Virus genome (UHGV): UHGV-0229635
From: a virus
Length of the DNA stretch: 10,391 bases
Strand: one strand, 5' to 3'
This document shows positions 3,181-9,609 of this stretch, in pieces. Position 1 is the stretch's first letter. The number at the start of each line of letters is the position of its first letter. The notes under the pieces are model-generated. The model saw only the letters and a program-made list of their open reading frames with translations, searched no databases and was not told the origin of the DNA. The position numbers were made by a program, and so were the translations under genes.

Positions 3181-3369
3181 TCAGAATGGTAATTCGGATG
3201 GGGAGGAAAGAAATTCGCGCTCATTCATGCGCTCTCTTTGCGCCTGCCATAAACAAAGTTGTTTCTTTGATTTATCTCCCGCTTTACGCCAGTAACGAGC
3301 CTCAGCAATGTGATATTCTCTTTTTAATCGACTTAACTCTGGAGTTTTCGCCAGTTCTACCGGAATCAT
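3181..3369 (-). CDS. 62-aa basic hypothetical protein, sitting where lambda has gam
   Basis: ATG at 3369 is preceded by GGAGG (spacer TCAAA) and overlaps the kil stop (ATGA); the ORF-track start at 3381 is an in-frame upstream ATG with no Shine-Dalgarno. Confidence 0.5.
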   Translation of the reverse strand: MIPVELAKTPELSRLKREYHIAEARYWRKAGDKSKKQLCLWQAQRERMNEREFLSSPSELPF

Positions 3370-3479
3370 TTTGACCTCCATTTTCTGTAGGCTTCTACGG
3401 CCTCACGAAACATCTTTTCATCGCCAATAAAAGTGGCGATAGTGAATTTAGTCTGGATAGCCATAAGTGCTTGATCCAT
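3366..3479 (-). CDS. kil: Kil-like host-killing/cell-division inhibitor peptide (37 aa, MDQALMAIQTKFTIATFIGDEKMF...)
   Basis: Begins inside the 3' end of cIII in a different frame, as lambda kil does; N-terminal sequence matches my recollection of lambda Kil. The ORF-track N-terminal extension to 3569 overlaps cIII and is not credible. Confidence 0.65.
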   Translation of the reverse strand: MDQALMAIQTKFTIATFIGDEKMFREAVEAYRKWRSK

Positions 3480-3618
3480 TTTTTGGGACTCCTGGCTGAT
3501 TAAGTATGTCGATAAGGCGTTTCCATCCGTCACGTAATTTACGGGTGATTCGTTCAAGTAAAGATTCATTTAGTTGGAAGGCACCCATGCGAGCGCCTCC
3601 CGCGATTGCGTAAATCAT
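3448..3618 (-). CDS. cIII: CIII, inhibitor of FtsH-mediated CII degradation (56 aa)
   Basis: Translation MIYAIAGGARMGAFQLNESLLERITRKLRDGWKRLIDILNQPGVPKNGSSTYGYPD is near-identical over residues 15-56 to lambda CIII (..SLLERITRKLRDGWKRLIDILNQPGVPKNGS.TYGYPD); AAGGA Shine-Dalgarno. Below the ORF-track size cut-off. Confidence 0.85.
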   Translation of the reverse strand: MIYAIAGGARMGAFQLNESLLERITRKLRDGWKRLIDILNQPGVPKNGSSTYGYPD

Positions 3619-3642: not shown

Positions 3643-4611
3643 TTAGTAGGTTATTTTTGTTGCGAATACTTCGCCTTTTGCGATGGCTATTATGATATTT
3701 TTAGCAACATCTTCTGATGCGCCAACCTTGATAAGGTCAGCAAGTATTTTGTTATTTACTTCTCTCCGGTGAGCTTTATCCTTTGCTCTACGCTCTTCTT
3801 CGTCCTTGATTCTTTTTTCTTCTGCTATTCTGGCTTGCTCTTTTGCTTCAGCCTCGCGCCGGATTCGTTCTGCCTCCTCCTGTGCTTTTCGGCGTTCTGC
3901 TTCAATTGCTGCCTGCTTTTCTCTTTCAGCTCGTTCTGCTGCCTCTTTTGCTTCGCGCTGTGCTCGTTGCTCGGCTTCAATGCGTTCACGCTCTGCACGT
4001 TCCGCTGCGGCCTTAGCTTCTGCTTCTCGCCTTGCTGCTGCTTCAATTTCGGCTTTTGCCTTTGCTTCGGCTTCAGCTCTGGCTTTCTCTTCAGCTTCTC
4101 TTTTTAAGCGTTCTTCATGCTCTCGCTTTTCCTGCTCCGCTTTGAGTCTTGCCTCTTCTCTTTGGCGGTCAAATTCGCGATCCATCAAAATCGCTATTTC
4201 ATGGTCAGACTCAATTTGCTTTGCGAGAGCTTCAGCTGCTGCCTTAGCTTCTTCTTCGGCTTTAATCCGCGCCTGTTCTTCCTCATAATCAGTAAGAGGC
4301 TGGCGTGCCTTGGCTTTCAGCTCATCAAGGCGATCACGCACTGTCTTGCGGTTAGCATCAATTAGCTTTGGAATTTCCTTCAGTTCAGCAACAAGGTCTT
4401 TGCCAAGACCATCGAGATATGTTTTCGTCTGCGCAACTTTATACGCCAGAGAAGCGATCTCCTTTCTTCCCTTTGCCGTTGTGATATCAGGCACAAAGGA
4501 CATAACTTCACGTTCAACCTTTTGAAGGATTTCTTCAATCTGATCGGCAGACTGAAATACAGTCATTGCATTTGCTTTTTCAATAACAACTAAATCTGTT
4601 ACTTCACTCAT
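3643..4611 (-). CDS. 322-aa protein with a globular N-terminus and a long Ala/Glu/Lys/Arg-rich coiled-coil (KfrA/TolA-like low complexity)
   Basis: ORF-track frame; start reassigned to the ATG at 4611 (GGGGGA Shine-Dalgarno), because the track's TTG start at 4665 would place an intrinsic terminator hairpin inside the coding sequence. Confidence 0.7.
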   Translation of the reverse strand: MSEVTDLVVIEKANAMTVFQSADQIEEILQKVEREVMSFVPDITTAKGRKEIASLAYKVAQTKTYLDGLGKDLVAELKEIPKLIDANRKTVRDRLDELKAKARQPLTDYEEEQARIKAEEEAKAAAEALAKQIESDHEIAILMDREFDRQREEARLKAEQEKREHEERLKREAEEKARAEAEAKAKAEIEAAARREAEAKAAAERAERERIEAEQRAQREAKEAAERAEREKQAAIEAERRKAQEEAERIRREAEAKEQARIAEEKRIKDEEERRAKDKAHRREVNNKILADLIKVGASEDVAKNIIIAIAKGEVFATKITY

Positions 4612-4623
4612 ATTTCCCCCGTT

Positions 4624-4650
4624 AAAAAAATCGCCCTCACACTGGAGGGC
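4624..4650 (-). terminator. rho-independent terminator on the minus strand (stem GCCCTC/GAGGGC, loop CAGTGT, then T7 tract)
   Basis: Read directly: plus-strand gccctcacactggagggc preceded by aaaaaaa, giving a hairpin plus U-tract on the leftward transcript. Confidence 0.6.
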
Positions 4651-4754
4651 AAAGAAGATTTCCAATAATCAGAACAAGTCGGCTCCTGTTTAGTTACGAG
4701 CGACATTGCTCCGTGTATTCACTCGTTGGAATGAATGCACAGTGCTTATTTGTA

Positions 4755-5225
4755 CTAATAAAATACCCAATTTTCTGTTTCTTGGTTGTGTCCAAAGTTA
4801 TATTCAATATCTGGTGTTGATGTATCAATATTCTTCATCTCATCAACAAGAGTTGATACAACAGCCAAATCTTGTTTGATTCTCATTAAATGGTATTTCT
4901 TCCGGCGCAATAAACTTTCAATGGCAAGTTTCTTCGTTGGGAATGCAAAAGATCTTTCTGCATTTTTTGCTACTTTCTTAATTGCATATCTATTTCTCTT
5001 TTGTTTCCATTCCTGTAACCACTGATTTGGTGCTGGTTTAAAATTAACAATCCAATGCGCAGGAACCAACCATGCATAATGCTCTGTCTGATGAAAAGCT
5101 ATATATTGAAGTGCGAATATTTTGATTCCATCTTCTTCAACTGTCGCCTGGAATCTCCAGAAAACAGGCATTCCATCATGTTCAGTTTCTGATTCAGGAA
5201 AAGGTACGCTCCATGATTTTGTCAT
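4755..5225 (-). CDS. 156-aa hypothetical protein encoded by an AT-rich moron
   Basis: ORF track; GAGGTG Shine-Dalgarno 5 nt upstream of the ATG; visibly more AT-rich than flanking genes; followed by 89 nt of non-coding sequence and the terminator at 4624..4650. Confidence 0.6.
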   Translation of the reverse strand: MTKSWSVPFPESETEHDGMPVFWRFQATVEEDGIKIFALQYIAFHQTEHYAWLVPAHWIVNFKPAPNQWLQEWKQKRNRYAIKKVAKNAERSFAFPTKKLAIESLLRRKKYHLMRIKQDLAVVSTLVDEMKNIDTSTPDIEYNFGHNQETENWVFY

Positions 5226-5282
5226 ATCTCACCTCAAATAATTCAGTGCAGTGTTTATTCTGTTGCTTATTCCAAAGCAAAT

Positions 5283-5525
5283 TTAACCAGCAACAAACTC
5301 TTCTGGTAATTTATCAACCACTTGATGGCTTATTATCAGCCATTTGCCATCCTTCGTTCCGTATGCATATTTCTGGTCTTTTATCATCATGTGTTCAGCT
5401 ACTGCCTTAACTGCCTGTTCGGTTACATCTTCTTTCTTTCCCACCCACATTCCTTTTTCAGTGTTTAATGTTCCTTGAAAAATACGACCACTTAATGGGC
5501 TTGCGCCCATAGTTTTGATTTTCAT
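5283..5525 (-). CDS. 80-aa hypothetical protein (MKIKTMGASPLSGRIFQG...)
   Basis: ATG at 5525 is preceded by AAGGAG (spacer ACAT), directly after the terminator at 5533..5561; the ORF-track extension to 5588 lacks a Shine-Dalgarno and overlaps the terminator. Confidence 0.55.
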   Translation of the reverse strand: MKIKTMGASPLSGRIFQGTLNTEKGMWVGKKEDVTEQAVKAVAEHMMIKDQKYAYGTKDGKWLIISHQVVDKLPEEFVAG

Positions 5526-5532
5526 ATGTCTC

Positions 5533-5561
5533 CTTAAAAATAAAGGCCGATTATGCGGCCT
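5533..5561 (-). terminator. rho-independent terminator on the minus strand (stem AGGCCG/CGGCCT, loop CATAAT, then T-rich tract)
   Basis: Read directly; lies immediately 3' of the membrane-protein ORF stop (5566) and 5' of the Shine-Dalgarno of the next gene. Confidence 0.55.
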
Positions 5562-5565
5562 GAAA

Positions 5566-5904: not shown

Positions 5905-6094
5905 CTGATGAACAACATCAGGAATCTGTGCCTGGCTAAATGAAACAGCCGCGTCTATTCCATTGCTGGCTTTTTGCAGTAGTTCTACGAGAATCTTGTT
6001 TGCTTGTTCTTCCGTATATCACCTTAAATAGTGGATTGCGGTAGTAAAGATTGTGCCTGTCTTTTAACCACATCGGGCTCGGTGGTTCCTCCAC

Positions 6095-6143
6095 TTTCCA
6101 CAGTCAAAGGAAATGGGTAGACTGTTGTTTCCACAGTCAAAAG
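6095..6143. repeat. two direct copies of TTTCCACAGTCAAA(G/A)G, 33 bp apart centre to centre
   Basis: Read directly: copies at 6095..6110 and 6128..6143; the second ends 12 nt before the ATG of the plus-strand small gene. Confidence 0.6.
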
Positions 6144-6155
6144 AAGGGCTTTGTT

Positions 6156-6320
6156 ATGACAGATATTGTTAATCCCAAAACCAACCCACACGAAGCCGCT
6201 CAACAGATTATTGTTGAGCTTATCAGAGCCGGTAATCTTGCCCCTGGCATTGACGGAAAGCCAAGCACAGTTGTTTATGAAAAAATTCTTGATGAGATTA
6301 TCAGAATAAACAGTAAGTAA
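6156..6320 (+). CDS. 54-aa hypothetical protein (MTDIVNPKTNPHEAAQQIIVELIRAGNLAPGIDGK...), transcribed antisense to the pL operon
   Basis: ATG at 6156 with a GAAGGG Shine-Dalgarno-like sequence upstream; the ORF-track extension to 6051 has no start signals; convergent with the minus-strand gene ending at 6321. Confidence 0.5.
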   Translation: MTDIVNPKTNPHEAAQQIIVELIRAGNLAPGIDGKPSTVVYEKILDEIIRINSK

Positions 6321-6615
6321 TTAAGAGAACAAAATTTCGAATGCCTGGCGGATGGTTGCAACATCTTCGTTCGTCAGTTTTTTTCGTTCATCTGATGACA
6401 TCGATAACAATGCATTCCTCTCAATCAACGTAGCCAGCAGTTTAGATGCTATATTTTGAACGTCAGGGCTTAACTCTAAGAATTTATTTCGACTACGTTC
6501 GAGAATAAGTTGTGTCGCGGGTGTATCTTTTAACTCAGATATTTTTTTTGTCCAATACATCAAGCATTTCTTTCGTTTTCTCAATTAGTAATTGTTCAAT
6601 ACATGAAATATCCAT
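6321..6615 (-). pseudogene. gene immediately downstream of N, interrupted by a +1 frameshift in an A8 homopolymer (plus-strand T8 at 6542..6549); the intact product would be about 97 aa
   Basis: A 26-codon ORF (6535..6615, MDISCIEQLLIEKTKEMLDVLDKKNI*) starts at an ATG with GAGG 5 nt upstream, two nt after the N stop. Removing one A from the run reads straight into the 6321..6584 frame (..DKKISELKDTPATQ..). The downstream frame alone has only a TTG or ATG start without a Shine-Dalgarno. Confidence 0.5.
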
Positions 6616-6617
6616 AA

Positions 6618-6926
6618 TTACCTCGCCGTCAGTTGTTTTGATTTCCGATAGCCTGCCACGTAGATGGCTACGTTTGGCAGGCAAATGCTTCCATTGCATT
6701 CGTCGGTATTTTGGTTACGAATGTTGCCGAGTGATATTGCTTTTTCAGAAAGGCTTAAACGCTTTCTCGGTTCTTTCTGAACAGGTTCATCACTGTCTGT
6801 ACCGAAGATCGAATCGATGATGTTGCATATAGCATCACGCTCGATAGCCAGCTTTCTGCGCCGCTCATGACGGCGAGTTTTGGCATTTCCTGTAAATGTT
6901 GATTTCCCGTACACGATTACCGTCAT
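6618..6926 (-). CDS. N: N-type transcription antitermination protein, P22 gene 24 type (102 aa)
   Basis: N-terminal arginine-rich motif GNAKTRRHERRRKLAIERD matches the P22 N boxB-binding peptide; GAGGA Shine-Dalgarno; long 5' leader carrying nutL. Confidence 0.85.
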   Translation of the reverse strand: MTVIVYGKSTFTGNAKTRRHERRRKLAIERDAICNIIDSIFGTDSDEPVQKEPRKRLSLSEKAISLGNIRNQNTDECNGSICLPNVAIYVAGYRKSKQLTAR

Positions 6927-7186: not shown

Positions 7187-7215
7187 ATAATGAACCAGTA
7201 GTTCGATATTATCAA
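7187..7215 (-). promoter_or_regulatory. candidate pL early leftward promoter (-35 TTGATA at 7215..7210, 17-nt spacer, -10 CATTAT at 7192..7187)
   Basis: Sigma70-like hexamers about 45 nt upstream of nutL boxA on the minus strand; overlapped by a 10-bp imperfect inverted repeat (7195..7204 / 7216..7225). No experimental support. Confidence 0.4.
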
Positions 7216-7493
7216 GAACTATTGGTACGAATCGTTTATGATTTATTAACTCTACGAAATATGATTTTGATATATAAGGAAATTTATTTTTGTAAATGTT
7301 GCGGATGAAGGTTATGCGGCAGGGATCAGAATTGCGTGGTTTAGCAAGTTGTATCTATTTATTTTTCAATAAATACAATTGGTTATGTGTTTTTAGATGG
7401 TGGATCGGGAGGCAAAGAAAACTGCTAGGTAGAAAACTGTGGGCACAAAAAAGCTAATGTGGAGTTGTTTGATCTTTTTAGGGGAATAAGAAA

Positions 7494-7517
7494 ACCCGCC
7501 GAAGCGGGTGTTTTTGG
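7494..7517. terminator. bidirectional intrinsic terminator (stem ACCCGC/GCGGGT, loop CGAA, T-tracts on both sides)
   Basis: Read directly: aaaacccgccgaagcgggtgttttt; the stem starts 9 nt after the stop of the 40-aa gene. Confidence 0.65.
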
Positions 7518-7640
7518 TTATGCTGCCATTGGAAGCTTTGATGCTAGCATTTCTGCTTTTCTCTGCTTCATTTCAGCAATAATCTGATTGATTCGATCCG
7601 CACTTTTAAGCATATCTTTGATATGTTCAGTTCTAGACAT
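7518..7640 (-). CDS. 40-aa hypothetical peptide (MSRTEHIKDMLKSADRINQIIAEMKQRKAEMLASKLPMAA), second gene of the cI-proximal cassette
   Basis: ATG preceded by GGAGGA (spacer TAAAC); ends directly at the intrinsic terminator; below the ORF-track size cut-off; predicted helical and amphipathic. Confidence 0.45.
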   Translation of the reverse strand: MSRTEHIKDMLKSADRINQIIAEMKQRKAEMLASKLPMAA

Positions 7641-7663
7641 GTTTATCCTCCGCTCTGTAAGTG

Positions 7664-8026
7664 TCAAAGACCCGATTTAGCACTCTTGAGTAGTTTTGAT
7701 CCCTCAGAGCACAAATCAGGATTCTTTTCTCTTATGTTTTTGATTAAAATCTGTGCAAATATGATGATTTGCTTTAAGTTTAGTTCATTGATTGCATCAG
7801 CTTTTTGGTCAAGTTTCTCTAGCTCTGCATCTAATTCGTCAAGAGATGGGTTTGTTAACTCATGCAACCCTTCAATTCCAAGCTCTTCAAGACTGGTTGT
7901 AACAAATTCAATCAGACCGATTACAGCCTTTTTGACGCTATATATCTGCTTCTCCTCTGCGGAGGCCTCTGCACTTGGAACCAATGCTAAGGTTTTCAGA
8001 TATTCATTCGTTTCATCTTGGGTCAC
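7664..8026 (-). CDS. 120-aa acidic helical hypothetical protein, first gene of the cI-proximal cassette (position of lambda rexAB)
   Basis: ORF track; GTG start with AAGGAG 8 nt upstream; same strand as cI and 166 nt downstream of it; AT-rich relative to cI. Confidence 0.6.
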   Translation of the reverse strand: MTQDETNEYLKTLALVPSAEASAEEKQIYSVKKAVIGLIEFVTTSLEELGIEGLHELTNPSLDELDAELEKLDQKADAINELNLKQIIIFAQILIKNIREKNPDLCSEGSKLLKSAKSGL

Positions 8027-8192
8027 TAACTATACTCCTTATATATGCTCGATCAACCCATTTTGCAACCGCATTTACTGGGATAGAGCTTTTTTTACAA
8101 TAGTCTTATGTGTATATTTACAACGTTGTTTGTGGATAGGGTTATGATTTGTACCTAAAACCTGTCGCATTTTCGTCTCTATGCTATTGGTA

Positions 8193-8900
8193 TTAATAAT
8201 TTCTCAGCCACTCCCTTGCCTCGATGTCATCCAGATGGCGAGATTGCTTCAGAATACCAGCCACATACTCCACCTTTGCTACTTGATGATAAGGCAACGT
8301 TATTGGTCTGTGGTCCTGGTTGATGCTTGTAAATTGGTATTCTCCATCTCTGTCATAGCCAAGAATCTTGATCATGTTGTGTCCTTCGATGGTTCTGACA
8401 AACACCTCATCACCCGGGAATACTTTGGTGTTAGGCTCAATGAGTACATATTCTCCTGATTTTATTCTGGGCCACATGCTGTCTCCTTTCACACGAAGAC
8501 CAAAGGCATCTGGATCATCGCTATAAATCTTGAGCCACCCATCGCGTTCTTCGGTCATCTCGATGGCACCATCAACACCAAGAATTGCCTCACCAACCAC
8601 GCGCACTAACCCTTTTTTTAATTTGCCAACAAATGAAAGAGTATCTTCATCATTCGCTCCATTTAACGAAGTGCCGTGCTGAAGCCAAACAACATCAACG
8701 TTTAGAAATTTCGCAAGCGCATTCATTTTTTCCTGACGCGGTAAAGACTCAGCATTAAACCATTTGCTAACGCCTTTGGACGAAAGAGAAAGGGCACGGG
8801 CTATAGCCATTCCCCTACCATGTTCATCAAGACCAGCTTCTTTACAGGCTTGCGCTAGCCGCTGGGCGAATTCTTTGCGCACTTTTTCATTCTGAACCAT
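8193..8900 (-). CDS. cI: CI-type prophage repressor: N-terminal HTH domain plus C-terminal LexA-like S24 peptidase domain (235 aa)
   Basis: Divergent from cro across an operator region; S24 catalytic motifs GDSM (Ser141) and Lys178 with LexA-like spacing; no Shine-Dalgarno before the ATG, consistent with a leaderless pRM-type transcript. Confidence 0.85.
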   Translation of the reverse strand: MVQNEKVRKEFAQRLAQACKEAGLDEHGRGMAIARALSLSSKGVSKWFNAESLPRQEKMNALAKFLNVDVVWLQHGTSLNGANDEDTLSFVGKLKKGLVRVVGEAILGVDGAIEMTEERDGWLKIYSDDPDAFGLRVKGDSMWPRIKSGEYVLIEPNTKVFPGDEVFVRTIEGHNMIKILGYDRDGEYQFTSINQDHRPITLPYHQVAKVEYVAGILKQSRHLDDIEAREWLRNY

Positions 8901-8978
8901 GAGTACGATACTAAAGCACTTGCAAAAACTTTCAGTTCAATCATAATGCGTACTGAAAGTACGAAAAAGGATATTCCT
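8901..8978. promoter_or_regulatory. OR-type divergent control region (pRM/pR plus operators): candidate pR -35 TTGCAA (8920..8925) and -10 CATAAT (8942..8947); perfect palindrome CGTACTgaaAGTACG (8949..8963); 9-bp inverted repeat ACTTTCAGT/ACTGAAAGT (8928..8936 / 8952..8960)
   Basis: Read directly; position between divergent cI and cro. Confidence 0.7.
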
Positions 8979-9206
8979 ATGCAAAATCTTGATGAGCCGA
9001 TTAAAGGTGTCGGCATACCTGAAGTTGCGAAGGCTTGTGGAGTTAGCGAAAGGGCTGTCTATAAGTGGCTCAAAAACGGCTTCCTCCCTAAGACTGAGTT
9101 TTTTGGGAAAACGAAATACGCCTCAAAAATCGAAGAGATTTCTGGTGGCAAATATCAAGCAAGCGAAATGCTTGAAATAAGTAAAAAGAACCTTCTGGCT
9201 GCATAA
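8979..9206 (+). CDS. cro: Cro-like HTH regulator (75 aa)
   Basis: First gene rightward of the operator region; HTH signature (..VAKACGVSERAVYKWLKNG..); AAGGA Shine-Dalgarno 8 nt before the ATG at 8979. The in-frame ORF-track ATG at 8946 lies inside the candidate pR -10 and is unlikely to be used. Confidence 0.75.
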   Translation: MQNLDEPIKGVGIPEVAKACGVSERAVYKWLKNGFLPKTEFFGKTKYASKIEEISGGKYQASEMLEISKKNLLAA

Positions 9207-9312: not shown

Positions 9313-9609
9313 ATGGAAAGAACAAGTTACAGCAAACTATCACAGCGTGACGTTGATCGCGCAGAAACAGATTTACTTATCAATCTGTCAGCTATTACCC
9401 AGCGCGGTCTGGCAAAGATGATTGGCTGTCATGAATCGAAGATAAGCAGAACGGACTGGCGGTTTATTGCTTCGGTCCTGTGTGCTTTCGGAATGGCATC
9501 AGACATCAGTCCGATTAGCAGGGCTTTTAAGTATGCGCTTGATGAAATCATCAATAAAAAACGCCCGGCGGCAACCGAGCGTTCTGAACAAATCCAGATG
9601 GAATTCTGA
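9313..9609 (+). CDS. cII: CII transcriptional activator (98 aa); C-terminal 20 residues identical to lambda CII
   Basis: C-terminus ..NKKRPAATERSEQIQMEF is identical to lambda CII; the N-terminal two-thirds is divergent; located between nutR/tR1 and O. Confidence 0.85.
   Translation: MERTSYSKLSQRDVDRAETDLLINLSAITQRGLAKMIGCHESKISRTDWRFIASVLCAFGMASDISPISRAFKYALDEIINKKRPAATERSEQIQMEF

Follow-up and report, generated by a model that had tools for sequence, protein, structure and literature searches.

In phage lambda, the part of the early-left operon between ral and ea10 encodes a small RNA (sRNA), PreS (LPR1), whose 3' end is the terminator tL2a. Lambda PreS is Hfq-dependent, about 88 nucleotides (nt) long and processed to about 68 nt; it is produced in the lytic cycle only, activates dnaN translation, represses alaS and contributes to the replication of lambda DNA and to the yield of phage (Silverman et al., bioRxiv 10.1101/2024.10.31.621285). 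We analyzed the virus genome UHGV-0229635, a stretch of 10,391 nt (the window throughout this text) in which we recognise the immunity and early-left regions of a lambdoid phage with a mosaic genome. The locus under study consists of two small minus-strand genes, encoding proteins of 80 and 156 amino acids (aa), which lie between two intrinsic terminators. A reading made from the window alone (the sequence-only reading) had taken them for one inserted, AT-rich moron that is bracketed by these terminators and depends on N antitermination. It had located both open reading frames (ORFs) and both terminators correctly, and it had rightly placed the genes in the pL operon. N, a P22-type boxA and boxB and a pL-like promoter lie upstream of them. 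What the unit is, on the contrary, has to be seen differently. We read the locus as a lambda-type ral-ea10 segment of the pL operon that carries two ORF-only cassettes, with predicted N-dependent delayed-early expression, and give this reading a probability of about 0.8.

Window positions 4625-4745 agree with lambda 33925-34045, in the ral-ea10 intergenic region, at 120 of 121 positions (99.2% identity), and the sole mismatch is at 4737. The published primers P810 and P1104 map without deviation to 4711-4692 and 4648-4625, and so does the M1 wild-type 49-mer to 4695-4647. Judged by its sequence, the window holds an intact PreS gene at 4711-4625, and its second terminator is tL2a. The tL2a hairpin has 8 pairs here and is followed by TTTTTTT (-12.9 kcal/mol, z -3.07); in the GenBank record of HK97 a "putative terminator" is annotated after gene 45 at this very hairpin. 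Hfq binding, lytic expression and up-regulation of dnaN are known for lambda only and may, by analogy, extend to the PreS of the window. The presumed non-coding flank is consequently re-annotated as the PreS sRNA gene plus the classical lambda terminator tL2a. An Rfam search gave no match in the region, PreS included, which is probably why PreS goes unflagged. As another identity for the flank, the anti-sRNAs AsxR/AgvB of enterohemorrhagic Escherichia coli (EHEC) and the Pas sRNAs were considered and rejected, since both map to the late pR' region.

Comparison with lambda and Gally revealed what had been added to, or lost from, this backbone. The 156-aa ORF (471 bp) together with its Shine-Dalgarno sequence (SD) makes up a 504-bp block (4746-5249) that is missing from both phages. 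There the counterparts of 5244-5276 and 4625-4745 abut (...AATAAACACTGCACTG/TGTATTCATTCC..., with TGTATTC... after the join), which identifies the ORF as a presence/absence block. The hexamer GCACTG flanks the block at 5249-5244 and 4745-4740, and the block ends 33 nt ahead of the PreS 5' end and leaves PreS intact. In Gally the empty site (2358-2503 of the examined Gally locus) lies inside a stretch of about 490 nt without an annotated gene and holds the upstream terminator, the leader remnant, PreS and tL2a, with zero ORFs. In lambda, tL2a is still there and the upstream hairpin persists in degenerate form. Since both terminators stand at the empty site, they are not part of the inserts, and the idea that the bracketing terminators came with the genes has to be given up. 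Across 11 independent E. coli-type loci with varying neighbors, the left junction of the 156-aa block lies at 5241 or 5276 and the right one at 4608-4627. Upstream neighbors of the gene in these loci include N, ral, a gene for a transmembrane (TM) protein, an Nmad5-family gene and DUF7446; gp17, ea10/ssb, DUF2528, the gene for a 322-aa coiled-coil protein and cIII are among those downstream.

The 80-aa gene, a member of DUF7446, forms a block of its own. Its ORF (243 bp) and SD make up 262 bp (about 5277-5535) and begin where the T tract behind the first hairpin ends. This block is missing from the otherwise collinear loci of E. coli 19AR1724 and ZH063 and of phage phi367, where the hairpin and T tract join the leader of the 156-aa gene directly (...GGCCTTTATTTTTGGCATAAACAACAGAATAAACAC...); in window coordinates the block-free junction is 5536/5276, via TTT microhomology. 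This DUF7446 allele occurs in 45 of 5,426 complete E. coli genomes. The P22-like Salmonella phage SE1 has, downstream of ral and like the window, the same DUF7446 block (94% nt identity) directly after a hairpin of the same kind and the TTTATTTTT tract and followed by a TTTGG..AACAG linker. In SE1, however, a 96-aa gene comes next, in place of a gene of the HK97 gp45 family, to which the 156-aa protein belongs, and a diverged PreS-like sequence (83.6% over 55 nt) lies upstream of c3. That diverged stretch (1990-2044 of the examined SE1 locus) covers the 5' part of PreS, and about 60 phage records fall into the 80-90% class of PreS-like match. Because DUF7446 is missing in three loci and stands after ral without a gp45-family gene in SE1, and because the neighbors vary, we conclude that the two genes assort separately. 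The accessory status claimed for them is well founded, and it applies to two independent blocks rather than to a single unit.

The upstream hairpin (stem 5561-5544) has 6 pairs and folds at -9.7 kcal/mol (z -2.25). Together with the tL2a hairpin (4652-4631) it is among the best 4 of 24 terminator-like sites in the window, for which shuffles give 10.2 +/- 3.8 sites. Directly behind each of the two terminators stands an SD with its ATG (AAGGAGacatATG at 5525 and GGGGGAaatATG at 4611), as the sequence-only reading had noted. In ZH063 and 19AR1724 the identical 26 nt of the upstream terminator stand ahead of the 156-aa gene's leader, and they also close the TM-protein gene module in Gally. In phi367 and SE1 a different stem (GGCTGCC/GGYGGCC) stands ahead of the same TTTATTTTT tract. 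These variant hairpins follow ral and are stronger than the one in the window (-16.5 kcal/mol in phi367, -13.9 kcal/mol in SE1), and the fact that two unlike stems both pair speaks for conservation of the terminator function. The degenerate copy in lambda (-5.3 kcal/mol) is no better than shuffles. Like tL2a, the upstream hairpin is a backbone element; in many phages of the lambdoid and P22-like groups it stands behind ral or another gene.

The N gene and nutL (boxA/boxB) lie upstream of both small genes in the same transcription unit. A terminator scan of the minus strand from N to 5561 found no terminator-like site, and 5561-5536 is the first such site downstream of N; N-dependent delayed-early expression is hence the natural reading of this arrangement. 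In transcription order the backbone runs from the terminator hairpin over a short linker to the Hfq-dependent sRNA PreS and to tL2a as the PreS 3' end, and two minimal cassettes, each an ORF with its own ribosome-binding site, sit in it. RNA polymerase starting at pL and modified by N at nutL would read through the first hairpin, so that the DUF7446 gene and the 156-aa gene would be transcribed as delayed-early genes. The mRNA of both ORFs may then end or be processed at tL2a, in which case PreS would become the 3' untranslated region (UTR) of the 156-aa gene. Antiterminated polymerases would go on into the 322-aa gene, cIII and kil. Several points weigh against this reading. In 933W, HK97 and H-19B the 156-aa gene stands directly after N, so that delayed-early timing goes with the arrangement seen here rather than with the gene. 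N-dependence of expression, as had been proposed, is thus plausible for the window but no inherent property of the gene. Transcripts of 933W and HK97 would carry the gene together with N, and the first terminator on their way would be tL2a. A homologue in Pectobacterium and Brenneria lies just before xis-int, away from N. N-dependence, termination efficiency and PreS production would, moreover, have to follow lambda, from which they are extrapolated. Finally, no promoter-like site was detected on the minus strand between 4600 and 5700 by a scan for the sigma-70 consensus only, which would miss weak or activator-dependent promoters.

Table 1. Features of the immunity and early-left region of UHGV-0229635 (window coordinates).
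Feature	Position	Strand	Remarks
Kil	3366-3569		overlaps cIII
cIII	3448-3618		overlaps Kil
322-aa coiled-coil gene	3643-4611	-	highly charged; PGAP "TolA" or "coiled-coil domain-containing"; phrog_1376
Downstream terminator, lambda tL2a, PreS 3' end (by sequence)	4624..4652	-	hairpin 4652-4631, T tract 4630-4624
PreS (LPR1) sRNA gene (by sequence)	4625..4711	-	87 nt, zero mismatches to lambda, including the mutated seed region TTGTTCTGATTATTGG
156-aa gene	4755..5225	-	HK97 gp45 / 933W L0079 / phi24B vb_24B_11c family, phrog_1636
Leader of 156-aa gene	5226..5276	-	SD GAGGTGAG; 5244-5276 homologous to lambda 34040-34072
80-aa gene	5283..5525	-	Pfam DUF7446 (PF24233) / phrog_1578; ATG at 5525, SD AAGGAG 5535-5530
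Upstream intrinsic terminator	5536..5561	-	hairpin AGGCCG-cataat-CGGCCT, tail TTATTTTT
N antiterminator gene	6618-6926	-	P22-type arginine-rich motif; Pfam N_peptide PF25694, E 2.8e-38
nutL boxB	7120-7106	-	GCGCTGACAAAGCGC; upstream of N
nutL boxA-like	7139-7131	-	GCTCTTTAA; upstream of N
Candidate pL promoter	7215-7187	-	TTGATA-17-CATTAT; promoter scan
cI	8193-8900	-	immunity region
cro	8946-9206	+	
cII	9313-9609	+	

Both small ORFs belong to conserved protein families. The sequence-only reading, which recognised nothing in either protein, was right as to function and not as to family, and remote-homology and structure searches named families without finding relatives in fold or function. The mechanical ORF of the 80-aa gene extends to 5588. 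We take the ATG at 5525 as the correct start because AAGGAG stands 5 nt upstream and the alignment with DUF7446 runs end to end (residues 4-72 on positions 2-70 of the 70 in the profile; 98.2 bits, where the Pfam gathering threshold is 24.1; E 2.4e-28). DUF7446 proteins are widespread in gammaproteobacterial prophages. The AlphaFold2 (AF2) model of the 80-aa protein has a predicted local distance difference test score (pLDDT) of 91, and structure comparisons gave no fold relative for it. The 156-aa protein matches phrog_1636 over residues 1-156 (E 8.5e-111) and has no Pfam or NCBIfam match. It is 98.1% identical to HK97 gp45 and 98.7% to 933W L0079, and relatives of 98-99% identity are also phi24B vb_24B_11c and, in H-19B, an ORF without annotation that lies between N and gene 17. 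The family is limited to Enterobacterales prophages at 56-98% identity and has many invariant aromatic residues and a C-terminal motif, FGHNxET..W.F. An exhaustive search with hidden Markov models (HMMs) added 86 representatives, mostly phage proteins of about 140 aa (phrog_13631, phrog_25384) and none functionally annotated; the three whose contigs were read lie among phage-type small genes. Residues 61-125 hold 17 lysines and arginines versus 4 aspartates and glutamates, and both ends are acidic. We infer that the protein probably binds nucleic acid or an acidic partner via this strongly basic central helix.

The 156-aa gene has a G+C content (GC) of 0.355, and 0.274 at third codon positions (GC3); practically no other 471 nt of the window have a lower GC (0.9th percentile; mean over the window 0.432). 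Composition is thus not uniform, yet the entire interval from N to 4612 is AT-rich (GC 0.385) and the two genes upstream stand at 0.39. The reported AT-richness of gene and flanks holds for the gene itself and for the spacer 5226-5282 upstream of it (0.333), but not for the downstream non-coding stretch 4612-4754 (0.434). Four homologous ORFs from other lineages likewise lie 5-7 points under the GC of their own loci. Since the deficit is a trait of the family, the low GC of the gene is no sign of recent import.

Queried with the ORF alone, the 156-aa gene was found in 80 of 50,697 phage records and in 598 of 5,426 complete E. coli genomes (11%), a count that a query including the PreS/tL2a element inflates to 2,259. 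The 134-nt PreS/tL2a query itself matched 385 of the 50,697 phage records, 318 of them over at least 80% of its length. The exact arrangement of the window occurs in no record among these phage records or complete E. coli genomes. In one Cronobacter prophage and two metagenome-derived contigs, the place between N and cIII or kil is likewise taken by homologues, at 43-59% identity. Downstream of the homologues in Cronobacter, Pectobacterium and Brenneria there is no PreS-like sequence, and their flanks are unrelated. Each of these three is directly followed by a non-homologous intrinsic-terminator-like hairpin, and in Pectobacterium such a hairpin also stands directly before the gene. These hairpins lie at 5952-5972 and 6500-6530, at 6510-6545 and at 5478-5500 of the examined Pectobacterium, Brenneria and Cronobacter loci (L008, L009 and L018), respectively. 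The layout of gene plus terminator is kept across genera though the terminators are not homologous.

How the two blocks came to stand here allows for other explanations. A classic autonomous moron, with its own promoter and terminator and expressed from the prophage, e.g. for lysogenic conversion or superinfection exclusion, would account for the terminator-bracketed layout, for the low GC and for presence or absence between related phages, which is indeed seen at the empty site of lambda and Gally and in the three loci without DUF7446. But the scan for the sigma-70 consensus places no promoter-like site before either ORF, the blocks hold SD and ORF only, both terminators occur at the Gally empty site and tL2a occurs in lambda as well, and the low GC is shared by four other lineages. 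Neither gene is therefore a classic moron, and the moron interpretation is in our judgment quite improbable. A history in which the pL operon had the 156-aa gene from early on and lambda-type phages lost it by microhomology-mediated deletion has somewhat less than an even chance of being right. The Cronobacter and metagenomic lambdoid prophages with homologues between N and cIII or kil would fit it, a remnant of the leader (5244-5276) is still present in Gally and lambda, and the 6-bp GCACTG at both ends suits deletion as well as insertion. It is harder to reconcile with the smaller number of phage records that carry the ORF (80, versus 385 for PreS/tL2a, or 318 at the stricter coverage) and with the unrelated, PreS-free flanks in other genera. 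The indels may have gone either way, by insertion here or by loss in lambda, and such a loss would alter the history of the locus only and not its identity.

As to what the proteins do, neither could be assigned a function from Pfam, NCBIfam or PADLOC, the PADLOC matches being marginal (E about 0.01), and searches of PDB sequences with single-family and superfamily profiles returned matches of E > 0.4 only. The literature on L0079, DUF7446, HK97 gp45 and vb_24B_11c yielded nothing on function. Our best guess is that both proteins may be non-essential early host-interaction factors. The more specific proposal, that they are anti-defence or host-takeover factors expressed in early lytic growth only, is possible and rather doubtful. 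It draws on their place in the early operon, in an N-to-cIII interval that elsewhere is home to ral, sieB, gp17, Nmad5-family genes and ea10, on their small size, polymorphic presence and lack of housekeeping homology, and on the adjoining PreS, which is lytic-only in lambda. Location alone is weak evidence, however. No anti-defence family was matched, neither protein has homology or fold similarity to a characterised anti-defence inhibitor, neither sequence was found in the partly incomplete supplementary text of one accessory-gene screen, and no experimental literature on L0079 or vb_24B_11c was found. We also regard it as highly improbable that the 156-aa protein acts on its neighbor PreS, e.g. 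by helping to process, stabilize or deliver the RNA, and that their linkage is functional. It is true that all E. coli-type copies examined are followed by PreS/tL2a, that the block stops short of PreS and leaves it whole, and that the center of the protein is strongly basic. But lambda makes functional PreS without the gene, nothing like PreS follows the homologues in Cronobacter, Pectobacterium and Brenneria, and no RNA-binding domain was detected in the protein. The 156-aa family stands next to N in major Shiga-toxin (Stx) phages and has no detectable fold relative. That the HK97-gp45/933W-L0079 family represents a new early host-manipulating or anti-defence protein, or that the coupling of ORF and terminator is itself functional, e.g. 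with translation tuning PreS biogenesis or read-through into cIII/kil, seems unlikely to us.

Downstream of tL2a, the 322-aa gene occupies the place of ea10 in lambda; we take its ATG at 4611 as the real start because the mechanical TTG start at 4665 would cross the terminator. Beyond cIII/Kil come a Sak4-like annealase and an SSB. Upstream of N, the boxB is one that we take to be of the P22 type, by comparison with the P22 nut sites. Window positions 7321-7422 match lambda 35709-35807 (85% identity), just beyond the left operator (OL), and since the position of the candidate promoter agrees with this homology, we assign it to pL.

Between N and the small genes, a plus-strand ORF in 6004-6320, antisense to pL and at the position of lambda sieB, encodes 89 aa from TTG 6051 or 54 aa from ATG 6156 and has a weak match to phrog_27767; the stretch 6004-6088 shares 96% identity with lambda 34346-34430, a segment immediately upstream of sieB. 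The plus-strand ORF meets head-on, with zero spacer, an 87-aa minus-strand ORF (6321-6584) without a family match. Downstream of cI and upstream of pL, in the position of lambda rexAB, lie a 120-aa ORF (7664-8026) and an overlapping 49-aa ORF (7518-7667), both on the minus strand and neither with an informative family match for its product. A promoter-like TTGATC-16-TATAGT at 8056-8029 precedes the 120-aa ORF, and the unit, which has a GC of 0.35-0.39, is closed by a bidirectional terminator hairpin (7494-7509, -11 kcal/mol). This unit (7494-8056) fits the classic definition of a moron better than the 156-aa and 80-aa genes do. Between the bidirectional terminator and pL, at 7201-7400, GC falls to 0.295, more sharply than anywhere else in the window, and the GC skew is strongly positive; the lambda match at 7321-7422 lies partly in this dip.

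The locus offers a view at base resolution of how lambdoid early operons gain and lose single ORFs at short repeats (GCACTG, TTT) in conserved linkers. It also draws attention to an unstudied, widespread gene that lies between N and PreS in 933W, phi24B, H-19B and HK97. The 156-aa family, which stands next to N in the main Stx phages, is a better target than the 80-aa one, and a cheap and well-defined one for knock-out and anti-defence screens. Otherwise we see typical lambdoid mosaicism, with an ordinary layout.

Several known systems come close to the locus. With the ral-ea10 region of lambda it has in common the hairpin with its U tract, the location within the pL operon and the SD of a next gene directly behind. 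In lambda, however, this element stands after ral and before ea10 with no ORF inside, while the window has two ORFs inside or upstream of it, the 322-aa coiled-coil gene in place of ea10, and a tL2a tract of T7 instead of T6. HK97 gene 45, 933W L0079, phi24B vb_24B_11c and the H-19B ORF are like the 156-aa gene in protein (98-99% identity) and have the same 3' UTR, terminator and operon. They differ in standing directly after N, with the left junction at window position 5241; HK97 has both this N-gp45 adjacency and this junction, and in 933W no terminator is evident in the 58-nt spacer between N and the gene. In the window, on the contrary, three ORFs, one of them on the opposite strand, and a terminator part the 156-aa gene from N. 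Morons, which Juhala and colleagues are said to have described for lambdoid phages in 2000, are likewise extra genes present or absent between conserved neighbors and flanked by terminators; they also deviate in base composition, which in the 156-aa gene reflects its family. Unlike the genes studied here they have their own promoter, their terminators come with the insert, and their typical sites are in the late and not in the early operon, so that the ORF-only cassettes contrast with promoter-bearing morons. The locus is a new mosaic combination of catalogued parts, namely tL2a/PreS, the HK97 gp45 family, DUF7446 and the common post-ral terminator.

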